Source: a bacterium (lineage in GTDB: Bacteria; Patescibacteriota; Patescibacteriia; UBA10025). From it: a stretch of 64,000 nucleotides of DNA. The notes under the pieces are model-generated. The model was not told the DNA's origin. It saw only the letters and a list, made by a program, of their open reading frames with translations, and did no database searches. The position numbers were made by a program, and so were the translations under genes. Shown here piece after piece: positions 5,761 to 22,751 of this stretch. Positions within the stretch are counted from its first letter, which is position 1; every line of letters starts with the position of its first letter. Location of the stretch: positions 723,710 to 787,709 of the forward strand of contig JAKAGM010000001.1 in assembly GCA_021815445.1 (NCBI GenBank). The letters run 5' to 3'.

Positions 5761-6264
5761 ATGCGAAAAGGTTTTACCCTCATTGAGTTACTCGTCGTCA
5801 TCGGCATCATCGCGATTCTCGCTGGCATCGTCATTGTTGCCGTTAACCCGGGACGTCAGCTGGCTCAAGCCCGCGACGCACAGCGATGGAATGACGTCAA
5901 TGCGTTGTTGAACGCAATTCATCAATACTCAGTTGATAATTTAGGCAATATACCGTCTGCGATAGACACTGACTCGACAACAGTGCAGATCGTCGGGACA
6001 GATACGACAACAAATTGCACCTCGGCGACACCGGTGTGCGCGAATAACGGGACTCCGAAAACTGTGTATAGCGCGGCGGCGGCAGGTTGTTTTGCAAATC
6101 TCAGCACGACATTGATCTCAAATTATTTGAACGCCCTACCGACAGACCCTCAGGGAGGCACTGCAGCTGATACAAAATACTACGTAGATCTAAACTCGAC
6201 AACTGGCCGCCTTACCGTCGGCGCGTGCGGAGCTGAAAAGGCCACAATCTCGGTGACAAGATAA
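5761..6264 (+). CDS. type IV pilin (candidate major pilin)
   Basis: MRKG|FTLIELLVVIGIIAILAGIVIVAV canonical prepilin leader and Glu5; 167 aa with C-terminal Cys pair (CTSATPVC...GAC); last gene of cluster, followed by terminator. Confidence 0.75.
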   Translation: MRKGFTLIELLVVIGIIAILAGIVIVAVNPGRQLAQARDAQRWNDVNALLNAIHQYSVDNLGNIPSAIDTDSTTVQIVGTDTTTNCTSATPVCANNGTPKTVYSAAAAGCFANLSTTLISNYLNALPTDPQGGTAADTKYYVDLNSTTGRLTVGACGAEKATISVTR

Positions 6265-6281
6265 CCCTGCAATAACAACAA

Positions 6282-6309
6282 AGATCCCCATAAAATATGG
6301 GGGTCTTTT
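6282..6309. terminator. rho-independent terminator hairpin between convergent pilin gene and metE
   Basis: CCCCATA-aaa-TATGGGG stem followed by TCTTTTT on + strand and A-run on the other side; likely bidirectional. Confidence 0.6.
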
Positions 6310-6323
6310 TGAATATACTCTTC

Positions 6324-7475
6324 TTATGCCAACCGGGCTTCCGCAAGCCGCGTACCGATGACTGTGCGTTCAAGCTTTTCAAATGCAACGGGAATTGAGC
6401 GCGTCCGTAAACCGCAGTCAGGGGTCGGAAAAATCAGTCTGTGATCGCCCATTACCTTCGTGGCGTACAGTATCCTATCGCGAACAAGTTCGGGAGACTC
6501 AAGGAAATCGGTATGGATATCCGTCACCCCGAGCCCGATGCCGCCGGGAATGTGATACTTTTTGAATAATTTCAGCACTTCATAGCCCGGCCTGTCGCCC
6601 TCTTTTATCCCCGGTTTCCTGCTGTCACGATTGGCAAATTCCAGCGCGTACTGGCTGCAGTTGCGCAGTTGAGTAATATGGGGAAAGAGTTTTGAATAGT
6701 CGCTGAAACATATGTGGACGCTGAACATGCATCGAATTCCTTCAGTGGAAGCATTAAATGATTCGACAAAGAGAGGTACTTCTTCGGGATGTGACGTGAC
6801 TGCGGGCTCGTCAATCTGAATCCAGGTGGCGCCCGCAGCAACAAGCGCTTGGATATTGGGCCGAACGACCTGGGTGGCAATATCATGGATGAACCGCTTC
6901 CGCGCCTTTTGACGCGCAACCCGGCCGGCAGAAGTTCCGATAGCGAATGATCGCTTGGTATAATGCTCGTCGTATGACCAGTCTGCGATGGTATAAGCGC
7001 CCGTAATAGGAACTTTGAGTGGCCGATGGGTCATGACTGAAATTTGTTGAAATTCCTTGAGGTGATACGGCGTGAGAAAGCGGGGACGGACTTTGCATGC
7101 CGCCTTCTTGTAGTATTTGTTATCGAATGATCTCACGTGGCCGTAAAAATTGAAACCACCCGCTCCGCTCACCGCCTGGTGGTACATCTCCGTGCGCTGC
7201 TGCTCGCCGTCATAGACGATATCAATGCCGGCTTTTTCAATAAGCCGCAACCCGTACAAGGAGGATATCCTGTAAATCTCGTGAAGGTCTGCGGGGGTTC
7301 TTTTCTTTTTGGTCAAGAGCTCGATGAGATGTTCGGTATCTATACCGAGACGCTTGCCCCACTGTTTCGCGTCTTCAATATCTTTTTTAGGTATGGGCAA
7401 CCCTCTCCCCGCTTTTACGCGCCATTCAGGTTTCGCAAGACTGCCTATTTCGTGAGTAAGAAATGTTCGTATCAT
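6324..7475 (-). CDS. metE: cobalamin-independent methionine synthase, catalytic (C-terminal-type) domain protein
   Basis: 383 aa; WIQIDEPA, HICFSDY (cf. HTHMCY), GVTDIHTD, TPDCGLRTR motifs match MetE C-terminal Zn/homocysteine-binding barrel. Confidence 0.8.
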   Translation of the reverse strand: MIRTFLTHEIGSLAKPEWRVKAGRGLPIPKKDIEDAKQWGKRLGIDTEHLIELLTKKKRTPADLHEIYRISSLYGLRLIEKAGIDIVYDGEQQRTEMYHQAVSGAGGFNFYGHVRSFDNKYYKKAACKVRPRFLTPYHLKEFQQISVMTHRPLKVPITGAYTIADWSYDEHYTKRSFAIGTSAGRVARQKARKRFIHDIATQVVRPNIQALVAAGATWIQIDEPAVTSHPEEVPLFVESFNASTEGIRCMFSVHICFSDYSKLFPHITQLRNCSQYALEFANRDSRKPGIKEGDRPGYEVLKLFKKYHIPGGIGLGVTDIHTDFLESPELVRDRILYATKVMGDHRLIFPTPDCGLRTRSIPVAFEKLERTVIGTRLAEARLA

Positions 7476-10405: not shown

Positions 10406-11998
10406 TTAGTAGATCTCTTCTTTCTTTTCCTTTTGAAAAGATACCCAATCCTCCACCACTTCAATAAAAATCTTGAATGGCGCCTCGATAATAAAATCCA
10501 GAACGAAGAGAAAAAGATTGACCTTCGGTGTTTTATTTGAAACCCACTGTCCGACACGGAGGATAGGTATTGAGAAAAAATCAAGAATGATGGTCATCAG
10601 ATTGTCCTTTTCATCTACAATGACCAGCTCTTTGATCTCATATCTCAGCTTAACGCCGAAGAAACTGATGATAGTGAAGAAGAACAGAAACAGCGCCGCG
10701 CTGACGACATTGAATTTCAGCAAGATAAGGAATGAAATGATAAGGCCGAATGAAATGATAAAAGCCACGGCGAAAAACGAATTGAAAAGATACTCCGCGA
10801 ATTTGCTCCGTTTGAATACTTTGCGCTTTTTATACAGGAAACCCGCATAAGGTTCCTGGGAAACTATCTTTTTGAGAAACTCGACAATTTTATCAGTATT
10901 CTTCTTTGACGGAATGCGAATCGAAACTGCTATCACGAACATGAGGAACGGGTGGAACAGCGTGTTGATGAGCAGCGGCGTAAAATGCGTTGTGTGAATA
11001 ATATACCTGTCGTACGGATACTCGATAATGAGGGCGAGCATCATCTTGGTGATAAAGACGTAGATGATTGTCCTGATAAAACTGCGGCGTAATTTTGTAT
11101 GGGCTTTTTTATACCGGGATGCACAGGCTGCGCGCACGCGGTCTTCGAATTCCTGCGGATTGCTCGTGAGCTCCGGGAACCGGTGGGGATTTTCTTCAAC
11201 GATATCCCTCAATATAATGAAAAGGATGGAGAATCTTTTCATGAATCTCTGGAGACGGTCGCCGTACGGATGGAGAATATGGCTGTCGACTTGCTTTTTG
11301 AGGTAAACCAGGTCCTTTTTTACGCGCTCGACGGCTTCAGGCGAGTTCTCAAGCCAACCCGGAACGAAAAAATTAAAAAGATGGTAGCGGAGAATGCTGA
11401 CGTCCGACTTGATCAGCACGCGATGGATAGCGATATACACCTGCAGATCCCGCTCTTCGGGATCGGAAATATGTTCAGCCAGGTCTACGTCCTGCCTGAT
11501 GACTGAGTACATGCACTCTACGAGTGCATCTTCCTGAATCGGCGCGACAAGATGGTGCTCAACCTCGGACGAGAGCAATGAAAGGATCCAATTGCTCATC
11601 TGCCGGCGTTCTTTCGTCAGGCGATTCGGCGCCACGGCATCGAGGAGCACAATATATTTATCGAGAATAAGATCGACTTCTCCGATTACCCGTTCCGGGA
11701 TTGCATTATTCGGAAGATAACGGGCCCTGATCAGTTCGGTCAAAAGCAAACGTCCGAGATTCTCGCGTTTCTCCTCTGTATACAGGCGGCGCTTGATCAT
11801 GCGCTCTATGGCATTTTTGCGCAGAAGATGCTCGTCTTTGTAATCTATCGCATTGCGAATTTTTTCATATATAAACGCAACACGGCTAATGGTTACATGA
11901 ACCTTTATTTTAGGCTCGTCTTTGCCGTAGAGATCCTGCGGACGCTTCGTGTCGTACGCTGCAAGCAGCTTTTTAATGGGTTGTGTGAGCGTATTCAT
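10406..11998 (-). CDS. hypothetical membrane protein: ~290-aa N-terminal soluble domain plus 4-6 C-terminal TM helices
   Basis: 530-aa ORF; C-terminal half strongly hydrophobic (FAVAFIISFGLIISFLILL..., FLFFFTIISFFGV...); no family recognised by eye. Confidence 0.5.
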   Translation of the reverse strand: MNTLTQPIKKLLAAYDTKRPQDLYGKDEPKIKVHVTISRVAFIYEKIRNAIDYKDEHLLRKNAIERMIKRRLYTEEKRENLGRLLLTELIRARYLPNNAIPERVIGEVDLILDKYIVLLDAVAPNRLTKERRQMSNWILSLLSSEVEHHLVAPIQEDALVECMYSVIRQDVDLAEHISDPEERDLQVYIAIHRVLIKSDVSILRYHLFNFFVPGWLENSPEAVERVKKDLVYLKKQVDSHILHPYGDRLQRFMKRFSILFIILRDIVEENPHRFPELTSNPQEFEDRVRAACASRYKKAHTKLRRSFIRTIIYVFITKMMLALIIEYPYDRYIIHTTHFTPLLINTLFHPFLMFVIAVSIRIPSKKNTDKIVEFLKKIVSQEPYAGFLYKKRKVFKRSKFAEYLFNSFFAVAFIISFGLIISFLILLKFNVVSAALFLFFFTIISFFGVKLRYEIKELVIVDEKDNLMTIILDFFSIPILRVGQWVSNKTPKVNLFLFVLDFIIEAPFKIFIEVVEDWVSFQKEKKEEIY

Positions 11999-17775: not shown

Positions 17776-18789
17776 TTAGGCCTTCGTCAGCGTCACCAGG
17801 ATCGTCGTGCCCTTGCCGGGGGTGCTATGCGCCTCAATACTGCCGTGGTGCCTGTCCACAATCTGCTTGGCTATGGAGAGTCCGAGGCCGTAGCCGTCTG
17901 TTTTTTCTTTGGACCTGGACGCATCCGCACGGTAGAACCTGTCAAAAATATGCGGGAGTTCCGACGCTTTGATCCCGATCCCCTGATCCTTGACGCTGAG
18001 AATCATATGTCCGCTTGTCTCCCTGGTTTCCACGATGACAATACTTTTCTTCGGGCTGTATTTAATCGCATTATCAATCAGGATGCCAAGAAGGTCGACG
18101 AGGCTCTGATGGTCGCCTAAAACATTCCCCGAGGCAAGCCCGGACTTTATCGTGATTTGTCTTTGACGGGCGAGCACTTCGTTTTGCTTGACGGTATCGG
18201 CTATGACAGACTTGAGATCAACTTTTTGCATCGGTAAAGACTGCTCCTGCTCCTCATATTGAGCTAGGCGCAAAAGGCCTTTAGAGAGATGCTCAAGGCG
18301 CTGTACCTCCTCGAGCGTACTTCGCATGATTCGGTGCGACTCTTCGTGATTCGGCTGTCCGCCCCGCAATGCAACCTCAATCTCAGTTCGAATTGCCGTC
18401 AGCGGCGTACGTAATTCATGGGAGGCGTCCGCGGTAAACCGTCTTTGCGCATCTAAATTGTCTTCGATGGGTTGGAGTGTGCGGCGGGCGAGTACATAGC
18501 TTGCGCTTCCGCCGATGACAAAAACTGCCGCATTGACCAGAAGTAGCGTCGCTAACACTCGGTCATGTATTTCCTGAATCTGGGCTTCGAGGAGTTCATT
18601 CTCAATAGTTATAAACGGTGAGGGCGGAGGGAAACGTTGTTCACGAAAAAGTTCGGCCTGTCGTCGAAGTCCGGCACCAATTTGATTCGTCGTAAGGTTA
18701 TAGAGAGCGAAACTGAAGGATAGGCTGATACACATGATAATCAGGAGGTACCAGCCGGTCATTTTAACCGTGGGAGTATTAAGCTTCAT
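17776..18789 (-). CDS. sensor histidine kinase (2 TM, HisKA + HATPase_c)
   Basis: H-box FTADASHELRTPLTAIRTEIE; N, G1 (DQGIGI), G2 (GLGLSIAKQIV) boxes. Confidence 0.85.
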   Translation of the reverse strand: MKLNTPTVKMTGWYLLIIMCISLSFSFALYNLTTNQIGAGLRRQAELFREQRFPPPSPFITIENELLEAQIQEIHDRVLATLLLVNAAVFVIGGSASYVLARRTLQPIEDNLDAQRRFTADASHELRTPLTAIRTEIEVALRGGQPNHEESHRIMRSTLEEVQRLEHLSKGLLRLAQYEEQEQSLPMQKVDLKSVIADTVKQNEVLARQRQITIKSGLASGNVLGDHQSLVDLLGILIDNAIKYSPKKSIVIVETRETSGHMILSVKDQGIGIKASELPHIFDRFYRADASRSKEKTDGYGLGLSIAKQIVDRHHGSIEAHSTPGKGTTILVTLTKA

Positions 18790-19466
18790 GCGGGCGATTT
18801 AAGCTGGTAGCCGAAACCGCGGACGGTGTTGATCATCGGCTTGCCTTTGAACGGCCGGTCAACTTTTTTCCTCAGCGATGCGATAAATGCCTCAACGGTA
18901 TTCGGTAAAATATCCGCGTCAAAATCCCAGACGTGCTGGATAATCTGGTCCTTCGACAGGATGCGGTTTGCGTTTCGAATGAGAAATTCCAAAAGAGCAA
19001 ACTCTTTATGTGACAGGGCAATCATCTGTCCGTCCCGCTTGACTTCGAATTTCTCCGGATACAGTTCGAGATCGCCGGCCTTTAACACGGTTCCTATGTT
19101 GTGGTTCGGACGGCGGAGAAGTGCGCGTATGCGGGCCAAAAGTTCCTCAAACGAAAAAGGTTTAACGAGATAATCGTCAGCGCCGCTTTCGAGGCCTTCC
19201 ACGCGATCACTGGTTCTGTCCCGAGCTGTCAGGATGAGGATGGGCTGGTGGATGCCCGCTTTTCGGACTTCCCTGCAAATATCAAGTCCGTCACGTATAT
19301 CAGGCAACATCCGATCAAGGATGAGCAGGTCGAAACGGCCGCGAAGCGCGCGGGCCATTCCCTGCCTGCCGTTATAGAGCACGTCCACAGCAAATGATTC
19401 CTGTTCTAATCCCCGCTTTAACGCCTGGGCAATCTTATGTTCGTCTTCGATAAGAAGAATTCTCAT
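18786..19466 (-). CDS. OmpR-family response regulator (receiver + winged-helix)
   Basis: MRILLIEDE..., DLLILDRMLPD, KP...LTARD receiver motifs; C-terminal trans_reg_C (LSHKEFALLEFL...GFGYQL); 4-nt overlap with kinase gene. Confidence 0.9.
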   Translation of the reverse strand: MRILLIEDEHKIAQALKRGLEQESFAVDVLYNGRQGMARALRGRFDLLILDRMLPDIRDGLDICREVRKAGIHQPILILTARDRTSDRVEGLESGADDYLVKPFSFEELLARIRALLRRPNHNIGTVLKAGDLELYPEKFEVKRDGQMIALSHKEFALLEFLIRNANRILSKDQIIQHVWDFDADILPNTVEAFIASLRKKVDRPFKGKPMINTVRGFGYQLKSPA

Positions 19467-19650
19467 ATAGTGGATTGTATGTATGTTAGCTGAAAAAGAG
19501 CTGAAACAATTCTCATTCTACCCCTATAAGCCGTAAATGTAGAGGAAATGTCGAAAATCAGCGGAAATTCAGGGATAAGCCTTACATTTAATCTTCACAC
19601 TACTACTACAGGAAAAAAGAAATCTATGTTCCACCAATCAATAAAAATCT

Positions 19651-20673
19651 ATGCGCCGTTATAAGGCACTCGTAACAGAAATAAAGAATCTTACTCCCTC
19701 GATTGTTGAGATTACCATGGTAAGGCGCGACGGGGCCGACTTTCCGGATTTTCTGCCCGGTCAATATGCAACGTTGAGTTTCCCAAATTATGAGAGGTTA
19801 AAGGGTGAACGATCATTCTCTATAGCGAGCGCCCCGACCGACAGGTCAAGGCTTCGTTTCGGCATCCGCATCGGCGGCCGTTACACGTCAGCCCTCCGCC
19901 GCATTCGCATGCGGGAGCCCGTGATTGTCGCCGGGCCTTTTGGAAAATTCACTTTCGATCCTGACCGTGACAGGTCTGCGGTTTTTATCGCGGGTGGAAT
20001 CGGCATCACGCCGTTTCTCAGTATGATCCGGGCAGCTACTGATCTTGAATTAAAGAACGAGCTTACGCTCATCTACAGTGTCCGATCAATGAATGACGCA
20101 GCATACATGCAGGAGCTTAATGAACTGGAACGCATAAACCCGCATTTGCGTGTTACGTATGCGATATCAGATGAAAAAGTCCCCGGTTTATCCGAAAGAC
20201 TGGTGCCCGGACGCATCAATCCCGAATTAATAGATAAAATGCTTCCCGGGAACATGTGGGGATATTCTTTCTTTTTGTGCGGACCCCCGCCATTCATGGA
20301 CGCGATGACTGCGGCGCTGCGCACAATGGGGCTTCCTGCGTCAGCGGTCATGACCGAGCGGTTTGGCATCGGTTCGTCAGATTTTATCGAACGCGGTACG
20401 CCCATCCCGAAGCTTATTTTTGCCGGCTGGGGCGTAGCAGCGATGATCGTTTTAGGAATCATCGTGAAAGTAGAACAGACGAAACGTGCAAATGCCATTG
20501 CCGCGAACCCGACACCAATCACCAATGTAACCCCTGATACGACTTTACAAAACACGGGTTCGCAGGTACAACTGGCTCCTGCAAACCCTACATACACGTA
20601 CACCCCCCAGCAAACGCAGCCTCAACCGACGTATAGGTCAAACTACATCCGACCGCGGACAACGATGTCTTAA
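19651..20673 (+). CDS. FAD/NAD(P)-binding oxidoreductase, ferredoxin-NADP reductase / flavin reductase (Fre)-like, with C-terminal TM anchor and Pro/Thr/Gln-rich tail
   Basis: RxFSIASAP flavin-binding motif, GGIGITPFLSMI NAD(P)-binding motif; C-terminal hydrophobic stretch AGWGVAAMIVLGIIV then low-complexity tail. Confidence 0.7.
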   Translation: MRRYKALVTEIKNLTPSIVEITMVRRDGADFPDFLPGQYATLSFPNYERLKGERSFSIASAPTDRSRLRFGIRIGGRYTSALRRIRMREPVIVAGPFGKFTFDPDRDRSAVFIAGGIGITPFLSMIRAATDLELKNELTLIYSVRSMNDAAYMQELNELERINPHLRVTYAISDEKVPGLSERLVPGRINPELIDKMLPGNMWGYSFFLCGPPPFMDAMTAALRTMGLPASAVMTERFGIGSSDFIERGTPIPKLIFAGWGVAAMIVLGIIVKVEQTKRANAIAANPTPITNVTPDTTLQNTGSQVQLAPANPTYTYTPQQTQPQPTYRSNYIRPRTTMS

Positions 20674-20688
20674 GCAGAACGCCAACCC

Positions 20689-21627
20689 ATGACGATAACG
20701 GAATCTTTCGGAGCAATGAATACGGCGGTGAGCGGCGGGTTTCGCACGGACCGCATGACAGGCAAGAAACTTTTTCAGGAAGTGAGGCGCCGCGTTGAAG
20801 ACTTTGAAGCTCGTTTCAGCCGCTTCAAGGCTGATTCTGAGCTGTCGAAATTGAACAAACGAGCCGGCGCCCCGACAGCGGTGAGCGATGAAATGTTTGA
20901 CCTCCTTACTGACGCGCAAGCAATCTGGAAAATTACAGACGGTCTCATCGATCCTACGATAGGCCAGGCGGTTATAGCCGCGGGATACGATGCTTCTTTC
21001 GAATTACTTCCCCTTGCGGACGGGGGTTTTGAACGCCAAAAAAATGAGTTTCCGCGAGCAACGTTCCAAGATGTGTATATAGATACGAAAAGAAGAGCAG
21101 TGACGCTCCCCATCGGTGTCACTCTTGACTTCGGCGGCCTCGGCAAAGGGTACCTGCTCGACAAACTCGCTCCTGTCATCGATACGGCAACGTCTGATTA
21201 CTGGCTTTCGTTCGGCGGGGATCTGCTCGTCTCAGGCACTGATGACGGAGGCAGGCCATGGCACATAGGGATCCAGGATCCCCGGGTTTTGGAAAAAGAT
21301 ATTATGCAACTCCGCCCGCCAAAAGGGAGGTGGGGCATAGCCACTTCCGGAATTATGAAGCGGAGAGGTGTCCGCCGAGGGACACCATGGCATCATCTCA
21401 TTGACCCGCGTACAGGACAGCCGGCAGTCACCGATGTCATTGAGAGCACCGTACTTGCCCATACAGCGCTCGAGGCGGATGCCATGGCAAAAGCTGTCCT
21501 GCTTCGTGGTTCGATAGAAGGAATTACATGGGCAGAAAGTCTGCATACTATAGAGGCGCTTGTTATTTCCGCTGATAACCGCGTACTGACAACAGAGAAG
21601 ATGAAGCGCTACATTAAAAACAGATGA
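20689..21627 (+). CDS. apbE: FAD:protein FMN transferase (ApbE family)
   Basis: 312 aa; DFGGLGKGYLLD (cf. DLGGIAKGYAVD) and ApbE-like C-terminal region. Confidence 0.8.
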   Translation: MTITESFGAMNTAVSGGFRTDRMTGKKLFQEVRRRVEDFEARFSRFKADSELSKLNKRAGAPTAVSDEMFDLLTDAQAIWKITDGLIDPTIGQAVIAAGYDASFELLPLADGGFERQKNEFPRATFQDVYIDTKRRAVTLPIGVTLDFGGLGKGYLLDKLAPVIDTATSDYWLSFGGDLLVSGTDDGGRPWHIGIQDPRVLEKDIMQLRPPKGRWGIATSGIMKRRGVRRGTPWHHLIDPRTGQPAVTDVIESTVLAHTALEADAMAKAVLLRGSIEGITWAESLHTIEALVISADNRVLTTEKMKRYIKNR

Positions 21628-22436
21628 ACAAACGATTTTTGATTATACCCGCACTGTTGGTTCTGCTGCCCTTGGGAGCTCGAGCAGTAACGACGGTCGA
21701 CCAGGTAAACACAAAACACGCAGTCCTCGCCCAGGAGTTTGAGGGCGGAGAATCAGAGGGAGACGGTGAACAGCAATATGTCCCGACGCCTTTGATACAG
21801 AAGGATAACAGTCTCCCCACGCAGGCTGCGCCCCCGGTGACAAATCCAACGAATACTCAACCTCAAGTTCAGGCTCCAGCCACGCCATTTTCGACCGCAT
21901 TCCCCTGGGCGTGGGTGGTAACGCGCACTGCAGGGATAACTTCGTACATCCTGCTAGCTTTGCAGACAGTGACCGGGATTGCGCTCTCGACGGGCCTGCT
22001 TTTCCGTATGTTTTCCCCGGCAACATCATGGTCAATCCATCGGGCAATCGGATCGGCTATGCTGGTGTCGGTGCTGCTCCATGTCGGCTCGATGCTTTTT
22101 GACCACTTCATCGGACTGAAACTTGTTGATATTCTGGTGCCCTTTGCTTCGTTCTATAGGCCGACGCTTGTAGCACTCGGCATCTTCGGGTTTTATAGTC
22201 TTTTGCTCGTCCTTGGCACATCACTCTACTCCATGACCAACCATCCACGATTTTGGCGCGTCCTGCACTATCTTGGTTTCCCCATGTTTGTCTCAATTTT
22301 TCTGCATGCAATCCTGATCGGTACTGATCGCCACCAGCCGCTCATGGTATTCATGTACTGGTCATCCGCATTATTGGTCGCGGTTTTTGTCACTTACCGG
22401 CTCGTGTGGAAATACCGACAACCAACTGACTTATAG
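21624..22436 (+). CDS. ferric-reductase-like transmembrane heme-b domain protein (MsrQ/YedZ/NOX TM-domain family) with signal peptide and extracellular PT-rich N-terminal region
   Basis: His pairs spaced 13-14 residues in two TM helices (HRAIGSAMLVSVLLH; HYLGFPMFVSIFLH) characteristic of bis-heme ferric reductase domain; overlaps apbE stop by 4 nt. Confidence 0.6.
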   Translation: MNKRFLIIPALLVLLPLGARAVTTVDQVNTKHAVLAQEFEGGESEGDGEQQYVPTPLIQKDNSLPTQAAPPVTNPTNTQPQVQAPATPFSTAFPWAWVVTRTAGITSYILLALQTVTGIALSTGLLFRMFSPATSWSIHRAIGSAMLVSVLLHVGSMLFDHFIGLKLVDILVPFASFYRPTLVALGIFGFYSLLLVLGTSLYSMTNHPRFWRVLHYLGFPMFVSIFLHAILIGTDRHQPLMVFMYWSSALLVAVFVTYRLVWKYRQPTDL

Positions 22437-22492
22437 CTATTTCCCATTCGCGCGGCGCACTTTCTGAGAAGGAGTATTTATACCAAACGGCC

Positions 22493-22675
22493 GAGTTTGC
22501 CCGCCTAGACTCGACGTCTAGTCGAGGCTGGCTTCGCGAGAGCGAAGCGGGTCCTTTTCCCGCCACATTTATCACAAACAATGAGGCGGGATCCCGCCTA
22601 TGCGGCAGTGACTTGCCTCTCCACTGTTCTTTGAACAAGCAAAGAAAAGTGGAGCCCGCCATGGAGGGCATCTCC
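22493..22675. repeat. copy B of ~180-nt structured intergenic element (same conserved ends as 14663-14841, different internal hairpins)
   Basis: Shares GAGTTTGCCCGCCT 5' end, TCCTTTTCC(C)GCCA core and 60-nt 3' palindromic module with copy A; internal stems CTCGAC..GTCGAG and GCTTCGC-gaga-GCGAAGC replace those of copy A. Confidence 0.75.
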
Positions 22676-22751
22676 TTAAAAGGAGAGGGCGAGATAAATC
22701 GGCTTAAAGAAGTGCCCAAGCTATTCTGATTTGTTCAACTGACTCAACTCC

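Follow-up and report, generated by a model that had tools for sequence, protein, structure and literature searches.

A candidate split NOX/FRE-type NAD(P)H reductase operon with its own ApbE-family flavin transferase in Patescibacteria

Introduction

The closest described relatives of the system reported here are the 'MsrQ-like' flavinylation-associated gene clusters, which were predicted by Meheust et al. 2021 (eLife, PMC8238504), have been modelled by Huang et al. 2024 (PMC11334425), and are uncharacterised. In these, a PF01794 bis-haem membrane protein, the apbE product and a PF00175 NAD-binding module are proposed to pass electrons from NAD(P)H via haems to an extracytosolic flavin. The same components are encoded by a three-gene module, A-B-C, in a 64,000-nucleotide stretch of a patescibacterial contig (JAKAGM010000001.1, assembly GCA_021815445.1), the whole of which is called the window below. 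The preferred reading, to which we assign a probability of roughly 0.55, is that A-B-C is a split NOX/FRE-type NAD(P)H reductase operon with its own flavin transferase, most likely targeting the end of the tail of A. The genes, in which FAD and FMN denote flavin adenine dinucleotide and flavin mononucleotide, TM transmembrane, and FRD the ferric-reductase domain, are as follows:

19651-20673, + strand: gene A, FNR-type FAD/NAD(P)H dehydrogenase subunit with a C-terminal TM helix and a predicted extracellular tail, 340 residues (Pfam, AlphaFold2, Foldseek)
20689-21627, + strand: gene B, ApbE-family FAD:protein FMN transferase with no signal peptide, 312 residues (Pfam ApbE, matches to solved ApbEs)
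21624-22436, + strand: gene C, signal peptide, linker and four-His FRD membrane subunit, 270 residues (Pfam Ferric_reduct, AlphaFold2, Foldseek)

The 'MsrQ-like' clusters of PMC8238504 are mostly actinobacterial, usually have the NAD-binding domain fused to the C terminus of the haem protein, and usually contain an FMN-bind (PF04205) gene. By contrast, the module described here has a separate, TM-anchored dehydrogenase, a leaderless ApbE that is mostly of a Lys-type, a tethered C-terminal mini-motif as the sole candidate substrate, and a broad distribution in the candidate phyla radiation (CPR). Because the PMC8238504 survey, in which the CPR are strikingly under-represented, required a signal peptide on ApbE or its substrate, the CPR module would have escaped it. 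Of the features on which that survey relied, a PF01794 gene within five genes of ApbE, FMN-bind, DUF3570 or DUF2271 is present (genes B and C overlap); a signal peptide or lipidation site on the target gene, and the usual FMN-bind gene, are absent from the module.

With SpNOX and the NOX/FRE long forms (PDB 8qt6, 8qq1; PMC3591440) the module shares four histidines spaced by 13 and 12 residues, an FNR-type module, and relatives in which FRD and dehydrogenase (DH) are fused. It differs in being divided over two polypeptides, with the order DH-ApbE-FRD, in that the DH has its own TM helix and tail, in the presence of a dedicated ApbE, and in a long insert after the first helix of the FRD. In E. 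coli MsrQ (YedZ)/Fre, a separate FNR-family flavin reductase likewise feeds a haem-b membrane protein of the FRD superfamily; however, MsrQ has Arg for the first haem His and serves the molybdoenzyme MsrP, Fre is soluble, and there is no ApbE. Replacement of the first haem His by Arg defines YedZ/MsrQ and STEAP, and the few short forms retaining all four histidines group with the NOX/FRE long forms (Zhang et al. 2013, PMC3591440).

The function proposed here also resembles that of the Listeria FmnB/ApbE, PplA, Ndh2 and EetAB system, in that a fermentative monoderm would shed NADH electrons via an ApbE-flavinylated, surface-tethered carrier. The Listeria route, however, runs via the quinone pool and EetA/B rather than a bis-haem FRD, and FmnB is extracytosolic. 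Listeria PplA differs further in having folded FMN-bind domains with canonical sites, as outlined in PMC9973259.

A leaderless ApbE is not in itself new, since cytoplasmic ApbEs are known, including the partner of Klebsiella pneumoniae fumarate reductase and the trypanosomatid ApbE-fumarate reductase fusions (PMC12052999). As in these cases, and in that of terminal-tag substrates, a leaderless ApbE lies beside its putative target and the candidate site is a short, unstructured terminal peptide; a seven-residue tag suffices for ApbE and is best placed at a protein terminus (PMC12052999), and FMN_red proteins are flavinylated on unstructured C-terminal extensions (PMC11334425). The sites in such substrates are, however, canonical (D-x-x-[S/T]-G-A-[S/T]), and the substrates of cytoplasmic ApbEs stay cytoplasmic. 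The literature search found no paper on ApbE together with Saccharibacteria or Patescibacteria. The kind of system is already known, i.e. that of the 'MsrQ-like' flavinylation systems; what is new is the occurrence in the CPR of a split, TM-anchored reductase together with a leaderless Lys-type ApbE and a tail motif.

Results

Two subunits with naturally fused counterparts

The proposal that A and C together form a split NOX/FRE-type NAD(P)H-to-outside conduit is made chiefly because natural fusions of A-type and C-type proteins exist in both orders. In P0282, P0296 and P0319, a signal peptide, a TSP3 linker and an FRD are followed by FAD_binding_6 and NAD_binding_1 domains; in P0404, FAD_binding_6 and NAD_binding_1 precede a TM helix, a loop of ~12 residues and the first helix of the FRD core. 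The predicted arrangement of P0404 shows the TM helix of A to have an N-in/C-out topology. Since the A-type helix of P0404 occupies the place of the N-terminal signal-like helix of C, in the split system the helix of A may complete the six-helix FRD bundle, supplying the equivalent of TM1.

The original prediction, made from the DNA letters and their translations, had described A as an FNR/Fre-like oxidoreductase with a C-terminal membrane anchor. This description is borne out by Pfam (NAD_binding_1, 3.4e-16; FAD_binding_6, 1.7e-05; the NOX-type NAD_binding_6, 4.5e-06; all above gathering scores), by the presence of both motifs that had been quoted (R54-S-F-S57-I-A-S60-A-P and G115-G-I-G-I-T-P-F), and by hydropathy, which places a helix at residues 252-275. 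Conservation of R54-S-F-S57, G76-R-Y-T79, G115-G-I-G-I-T-P121 and C210-G-P in 105 sequences identifies A as a member of the FNR superfamily; in NCBIfam there is sub-threshold similarity only, to the reductase modules of flavohaemoprotein, BenC and NqrF. The AlphaFold2 (AF2) model of A has a mean predicted local distance difference test score (pLDDT) of 88.4, the core (residues 1-240) being mostly >90, and Foldseek matches it (E ~1e-18) to the FAD/NAD module of flavohaemoglobin, NqrF, the SpNOX DH domain and many FNR-family structures. With the SpNOX DH domain (8qq1), the TM-score is 0.88 normalised to the target, with a root-mean-square deviation of 2.2 A and E = 2.5e-18. Beyond its FNR module A continues into the membrane helix and a tail with pLDDT <50 for residues 291-309:

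20362-20364, + strand: F238 of E236-R-F238, end of the FNR module, a probable flavin-stacking aromatic (E236 and F238 invariant in 105 homologues)
20404-20475, + strand: predicted TM helix of A, residues 252-275, N-in/C-out (hydropathy; a single helix, 251-285, in the AF2 model)
20476-20652, + strand: hypervariable Pro/Thr/Gln/Asn-rich tail of A, residues 276-334, predicted to lie outside the membrane (column entropy 2.3-3.2 bits; length varies)

We take F238 to be the counterpart of F397 of SpNOX, the aromatic residue that is stacked on the flavin.

For C, a signal peptide, a Pro/Thr-rich linker and a ferric-reductase TM domain with two pairs of histidines, spaced by 13-14 residues, had been proposed, and all of these were recovered, with a Pfam score above the cut-off and histidines that are 14 and 13 positions apart within the pairs and invariant in 28 homologues. 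The Ferric_reduct (PF01794) match has E = 2.6e-07 and 31.2 bits against a cut-off of 28, a small margin, and spans profile positions 1-119 of 121; the domain searches suggested for the module as a whole thus gave Ferric_reduct, FAD_binding_6 and NAD_binding_1, all above their cut-offs. NCBIfam gave no match to C. The N terminus comprises MNKR, a hydrophobic stretch and A-R-A/V, and in the homologues MK-x-R is likewise followed by hydrophobic residues and a small-x-small site. In the AF2 model, five core helices and the N-terminal signal-like helix are present, block-mean pLDDT for the TM core (residues 95-264) being mostly 84-96. The top Foldseek matches, i.e. STEAP1, Dcytb/cytochrome b561, SpNOX, STEAP2 and NOX5, are all haem-containing transmembrane reductases, although they are weak, with TM-scores of only 0.2-0.44 and E of 0.13-1.4. 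The features of C are:

21624-21686, + strand: predicted signal peptide or uncleaved first TM helix, residues 1-21, ending A-R-A/V (read from the sequence)
21687-21905, + strand: extracellular linker, residues 22-94, acidic then Pro/Thr/Gln-rich (variable in the alignment; pLDDT 45-65)
22038-22082, + strand: H139 and H153, on one helix with 13 residues between them, similar to NOX2 His101/His115 (invariant in 28 homologues)
22266-22307, + strand: H215 and H228, on one helix with 12 residues between them, similar to NOX2 His209/His222 (invariant in 28 homologues)
22320-22328, + strand: outer-loop G233-T234-D235, just past the outer haem ligand H228 (G233 and D235 invariant; T234 at least 90 % conserved)

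The NOX2 residue numbers are those of PMC3591440, and the comparison of spacings was computed here. The G233-T234-D235 loop possibly contacts a haem propionate; that it forms a flavin site is less likely. In several relatives (FRD linkers of L018, 5917-6795, and L019, 1175-1999, and of P0282, P0296 and P0319) the linker carries TSP3-type calcium-binding repeats (D-x-D-x-D-G), at the place where the C protein of the window has the acidic stretch EFEGGESEGDGEQQ.

The assignment of C as NOX/FRE-type, rather than MsrQ-type, follows from retention of all four histidines with the NOX2 spacing, considered together with the signature in PMC3591440. The His-to-Arg substitution of YedZ/MsrQ is absent from C, in which H139 is present and, among the 28 homologues, invariant. 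No MsrP/YedY molybdoenzyme family was found by Pfam among the called genes of any neighbourhood or in the flanks of the window module. The earlier description of a split NOX/MsrQ-like conduit can therefore be kept in its split NOX-like part, given the fusions in both orders and the match to the SpNOX DH domain, and set aside in its MsrQ-type part, given the four histidines.

Conservation of the module

Co-conservation of the three genes, the absence of which in relatives would have spoken against a functional unit, was judged on loci with enough flanking sequence, and all such loci keep A-B-C. The order FNR-TM, ApbE, FRD is retained in 16 distinct loci, the window included, with unrelated flanks:

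L001, L002, L004, L007, L008, L010, L011, L013: Kerfeldbacteria-like loci with A-B-C, eight lineages beyond the window
L018: A-B-C at 31-37 % identity, with one additional secreted acidic protein
L022, L036: soil-type loci with A-B-C
L030, L031, L032: Saccharibacteria loci with A-B-C, the fourth gene encoding a TM-anchored Big_14-like Ig domain
L033, L034: Falkowbacteria-like loci with A-B-C

Three loci at contig edges (L019, L024 and L027) keep at least ApbE-FRD. The nearest relatives of the A, B and C proteins, at 45-60 % identity, are named Patescibacteria or Candidatus Kerfeldbacteria, and the close-family pattern finds only six loci among GTDB species representatives. Homologues number 764 for A at E <= 1e-20 and 747 for B at E <= 1e-25, while with a profile of C based on 28 homologues the number of cluster representatives recovered, among 1.84 billion, is 1264 at E <= 1e-30 and rises to 4213 at E <= 1e-10. 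Most homologues are from groundwater, sediment and soil metagenomes.

The Saccharibacteria- and soil-type modules have a conserved fourth gene, not present in the window module, the product of which is a TM-anchored Big_14-like Ig domain with two Cys (L030, 7806-8426; L031, 7854-8678; L032, 7748-8392; L022, 6656-7126; L036, 4788-5270); the FNR tail of L022 and L036 itself holds an Ig-like domain. On a 496-kb Patescibacteria contig (L023), only a 76-residue open reading frame (ORF; 6087-6317), 57 % identical to the C-terminal third of the FRD, was found, with a UppP homologue 4 kb away (10613-11428); this may be a remnant of the module, decayed within surroundings that are syntenic.

A leaderless ApbE

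The identification of B as an ApbE FAD:protein FMN transferase is confirmed by Pfam (ApbE, PF02424; E = 1.4e-54, 185.9 bits), by matches of 1e-28 to 1e-17 to 13 solved ApbE sequences, and by an intact catalytic set; similarity to E. coli ApbE in NCBIfam is sub-threshold. S220, R225, H236 and D264 align with FmnB S257, R262, H273 and D301, and are invariant in 4 homologues; the catalytic roles of the Ser, general-base His, Asp and Arg have been described for FmnB and Vc_ApbE (PMC12052999).

The original prediction had noted that ApbE neighbourhoods mark extracytosolic flavinylated electron-transfer systems. The ApbE of the module is not of an extracytosolic type: no convincing signal peptide or lipobox was found on B in the window or in the ~130 relatives examined, and an in-frame TAA 15 nt upstream means that an N-terminal extension of B is not possible. 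The 120 closest B homologues are mostly of 290-320 residues, and an N-terminal stretch exceeds the hydrophobicity threshold in just two, one of which is an N-terminally truncated fragment and the other of which has the stretch inside the conserved ApbE core.

A second unusual feature concerns the position four residues after the catalytic Asp:

21490-21492, + strand: K268 of ApbE, the Asp+4 position, Thr in solved ApbEs ('EADAMAK' in B; TM1553 'ADALST', FmnB 'GDGLST')

Of the 120 closest homologues (P0153-P0272), at least 85 have Lys here; the Saccharibacteria versions keep Ser. The Asp+4 Thr is, we assume, the Mg2+ ligand seen in the T. pallidum Ftp structure. The Lys-for-Thr clade of short, leaderless ApbEs, with AD-x-x-A-K against AD-x-L-S-T in solved ApbEs, may differ in metal dependence or in substrate recognition.

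The end of the A tail as a candidate flavinylation site

A canonical [S/T]GA[S/T] site had not been seen by eye, and a regular-expression scan agrees, [ST]GA[ST] being absent from all window ORFs of >=150 residues. The longer pattern D..[ST]GA[ST] is absent from all ORFs of >=100 residues within ~5 kb around the modules of 34 loci. FMN_bind, DUF2271 and DUF3570 are absent from the module, FMN_bind is absent from the window and from the 34 loci, and no domain was detected in the accessory small proteins and extensions, save for the Big_14-like Ig domain of the Saccharibacteria-type fourth gene. The only regular-expression hit, D-A-C-S-A-S-T in a 141-residue stop-to-stop ORF (6608-7030, - strand), was judged to be due to chance.

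By comparing homologues, a candidate non-canonical site was identified at the extreme C terminus of A:

20653-20670, + strand: C-terminal motif P335-R-T337-T-M-S340-COOH of A, candidate non-canonical FMN site (homologue alignment)

Among the 120 closest homologues, 45 have an A tail that ends P-R-T-x-x-S-COOH, the entropy being zero at the P, T and S positions; in 63 of the 120 the tail ends instead in a Saccharibacteria-type Cys-loop, C-x-[TS]-[TSN]-x-[ST]-G-x(1-3)-C-x, and in L022 it ends C-V-S-T-A-S-K-S-C. The core common to the tail ends, [ST]-x-x-S, has the spacing of the canonical [S/T]-G-A-[S/T] site, the last residue of which receives FMN (PMC12052999). S340 is favoured as the FMN-bearing residue by virtue of its analogous position, with T337 as the alternative. 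Reading S-G-V-T of the Saccharibacteria tails as a near-canonical S-G-A-T was rejected, the residue after Val being variable (T/K/Q/R/V/S).

The motif is not tied to the A polypeptide. In L033 and L034 a separate small gene between the FNR and ApbE genes encodes a signal-anchor and a Pro/Thr/Ala linker ending '...TTKVS' and '...ATKVS', respectively, and in the distant L027 a small TM-anchored protein encoded after ApbE-FRD ends '...PPPRITTAS'. No ApbE is encoded within 5 kb of the tail-less fusion P0404; for the FRD-DH fusion P0282, an ApbE gene lies immediately upstream, before which are two unannotated ORFs of ~130 residues. P0101, considered as a motif-less control, was uninformative, as its gene runs off the contig end.

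The end of the A tail is favoured as the substrate of ApbE because the motif is conserved and portable, because of the contexts of P0404 and P0282, and because of the precedents in the literature; on this evidence from sequence we put forward the assignment tentatively, at somewhat under an even chance. That the tail is outside is indicated by the topology of P0404, by the two Cys of the Saccharibacteria motif, which suggest a disulfide, and by the N-in signal anchors of the small proteins. Because the ApbE is cytoplasmic, the tail end would need to be modified before post-translational translocation.

Two further observations concern the tails. Where the T-x-x-S end is on a separate protein, the FNR tail (L033, 3194-4582; L034, 3027-4547) or an FRD extension (L027, 705-1712) ends in a run of Asp residues ('...REDDDD', '...HDDDDDD', '...GEGEDDD'), which might bind a metal or a partner protein. 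In L036, the FNR-TM gene (P0102; 2400-3040) is frameshifted, and its tail continues in another frame, followed by the Ig-like domain; this tail, in a frame outside the regular-expression scan, contains T-G-A-T within a Gly/Ser/Thr-rich stretch, the sole [ST]GA[ST]-like string in any tail, and a match that is probably due to low complexity.

Gene arrangement and neighbourhood

The three genes had been described as co-directional and overlapping; they are all on the + strand, but only B and C overlap, by 4 nt (ATGA), whereas between A and B, which share a frame, there are TAA and a further 15 nt. The A-B spacer (20671-20688), with its shared frame, TAA and five codons (AERQP), resembles a split fusion, probably by coincidence. 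Read-through to give an A-B fusion was ruled out, since TAA is a strong stop, the overlap in L004 is of 1 nt with the genes in different frames, and the gap varies in other loci.

Upstream of A, on the opposite strand, are genes for an OmpR-type response regulator (18786-19466), a histidine kinase, an EamA transporter and a PMT_2 glycosyltransferase; downstream and convergent are UppP/BacA, an EEP-family hydrolase, an inositol-monophosphatase-like protein and a MacB/FtsX ABC pair. The kinase/regulator pair is separated from A by the following region:

19467-19650, no strand: divergent intergenic region, 184 bp, separating gene A from the response-regulator gene, presumed promoter (only weak sigma-70-like matches)

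It had been suggested that the adjacent pair controls the module. Response-regulator homologues were found only in two lineages, L007 and L010, at 30-32 % identity and 2.5-3 kb away, with none in the other loci; co-conservation of the two-component system with the module was therefore rejected, and the suggestion is not supported.

The divergent region contains a perfect direct repeat of AGCTGAAA (two copies, 11-bp spacing, 19488-19506) adjoining the start of the response-regulator gene. Its geometry is as expected of an OmpR-family binding site, which it may be, although short two-copy repeats often arise by chance. A second repeat, ATAAGCC(G/T)TA(A/C)AT(G/T)TA, occurs at 19526 and 19575. A 12-codon upstream ORF, MFHQSIKIYAPL (19626-19664), starts inside the repeated AAATCTATG and extends, in a different frame, across the gene A start codon; it is probably fortuitous.

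The convergent spacer between C and uppP (22437-22751) is unusually long, at 315 nt, and strongly structured: its minimum free energy is -115 kcal/mol (z = -3.78 relative to 100 shuffled sequences), and it contains several GC-rich hairpins as well as terminator-like sites on the two strands. Rfam gave no family for this spacer, either at the gathering threshold or at E <= 1. The structured spacer could be a terminator pair, an undescribed small RNA, or both.

Discussion

In the preferred reading, the cytoplasmic FNR module of A, with its FAD, would oxidise NAD(P)H, and the C-terminal TM helix would dock A onto C, probably as the TM1 equivalent. Electrons would then travel through C, reaching first its inner haem b (H139/H215) and next its outer haem b (H153/H228), and so arrive at the outer face. 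This path, NAD(P)H to FAD to inner haem to outer haem to outside, is inferred from homology with NOX; haem and FAD binding, the direction of electron transfer, docking of the A helix and the identity of the acceptor are likewise inferred, rather than observed. ApbE would attach FMN to the P-R-T-x-[VML]-S-COOH end of the flexible extracellular tail of A, and the tail flavin, held "on a leash", would take electrons from the outer haem and pass them to external acceptors. Candidate acceptors would include Fe(III), O2, quinones, humics and the host surface; the neighbourhoods give no consistent clue. More speculatively, the C terminus of A, being tail-anchored, may be exposed to the cytoplasm after release from the ribosome, modified there, and then translocated; flavinylation before translocation would spare a reduced genome the export of FAD. 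In this way a fermentative CPR cell would re-oxidise NAD(P)H through the conduit.

Several observations weigh against these proposals. CPR bacteria usually cannot make haem or flavins, so that the cofactors would need to be scavenged. The Foldseek E-values of the FRD model are weak (0.13-1.4). The tail motif departs from D-x-x-[S/T]-G-A-[S/T], with which it has only the [ST]-x-x-[ST] spacing in common, and the tails are Ser/Thr-rich. There is no export signal on ApbE in ~130 relatives, while the tail is predicted to be outside, and we know of no precedent for the export of a pre-flavinylated peptide. Finally, few loci, with a single tail-less case among them, connect ApbE with the tail.

Of the alternatives, the one that survives best, though we think it unlikely, accepts the NOX-like role of A and C but has ApbE modifying a cytoplasmic site, either in the flavin pocket of A or in a loop of C, while the tail end docks on C, the wall or a host component. 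T79 (G-R-Y-T) of A presumably lies at the flavin-phosphate position, as in FNR structures. The ApbE is leaderless in all relatives examined, ApbEs that modify cytoplasmic flavoenzymes are known, and non-covalent flavoproteins become covalent when a target Thr is near the FMN phosphate (PMC12052999). However, S57, S60, T79, T120 and S124 of A are canonical FNR residues of non-covalent enzymes, none being in an ApbE-like context, and the juxtamembrane S242 and T250 are not conserved in L018, L022 and the Saccharibacteria loci; the conserved cytoplasmic Ser/Thr residues of A were rejected as targets on these grounds, i.e. as belonging to generic FNR motifs or lacking conservation in distant members. 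A cytoplasmic site also leaves unexplained the small tail protein encoded beside ApbE and the lack of ApbE near P0404.

It is also conceivable, though improbable, that B is not a transferase, but a FAD pyrophosphatase, or an Ftp-like factor for flavin handling or assembly, by which A would be supplied or loaded with flavin in a cell auxotrophic for it. Some ApbE/Ftp proteins, e.g. T. pallidum Ftp, have FAD pyrophosphatase activity, and such a role would fit with Lys in place of Thr at Asp+4 in most of the clade and with the lack of a canonical substrate motif in the window and the loci scanned. By contrast, the Ser, His, Asp and Arg that make up the transferase catalytic set are intact and invariant, the Saccharibacteria ApbEs keep Ser at Asp+4, and neither the conserved tail motif nor the tail-less, ApbE-less fusion P0404 would be explained.

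An equally improbable alternative is that ApbE serves a conventional FMN-bind (or NqrC/RnfG-like) protein whose gene lies elsewhere in the genome, the ApbE gene being a general flavinylation gene that is parked beside a NOX-like pair. The DNA inspected is 64 kb of a ~881-kb genome, and some CPR genomes reportedly encode NQR/RNF-like flavinylated systems (PMC8238504). Yet in 16 lineages with unrelated flanks the ApbE gene always lies between the reductase genes or directly next to them, and its stop or start codon often overlaps that of a neighbour, no canonical site is present within ~5 kb in any locus, and a cytoplasmic ApbE is hard to reconcile with extracytosolic FMN-bind substrates.

That A-B-C is an MsrQ/Fre-type system, in which the haem protein serves an extracytoplasmic MsrP-like repair enzyme under adjacent two-component control, is very improbable, for although one homologue is labelled by JGI as a methionine sulfoxide reductase haem-binding subunit, Fre is a known donor to E. 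coli MsrQ (cited in PMC8238504), and the kinase/regulator pair is divergent and 184 bp away, the defining substitution of the first His by Arg is absent, there is no molybdoenzyme gene among the neighbourhoods listed, and the pair is not co-conserved.

A split NOX/FRE-type reductase operon with its own flavin transferase is thus the reading to which we return. A more far-reaching form of it, i.e. that the CPR have a new class of ApbE substrate (a six-residue C-terminal peptide or a small disulfide loop, carried by a long, flexible extracellular tether that is anchored in the membrane), which with a cytoplasmic Lys-type ApbE and a split NOX conduit constitutes a minimal electron outlet, is for the present doubtful.

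A large part of bacterial diversity belongs to the CPR/Patescibacteria, which are usually portrayed as being without electron-transport chains. A compact module that is widespread among them could move NAD(P)H electrons across the membrane, and would then offer the cell a direct means of balancing its redox state, reducing iron or exchanging redox equivalents with a host. Should the tail end indeed be the target of ApbE, an exported segment would for the first time be seen to be flavinylated in the cytoplasm; the substrate repertoire and recognition rules of ApbE would be widened, which is relevant to flavin-tag technology, and a testable handle on CPR energy metabolism would be available. If the proposal of a minimal electron outlet is true, organisms considered to be purely fermentative would have a respiratory-like sink for NAD(P)H, and one for which no export of FAD is needed.

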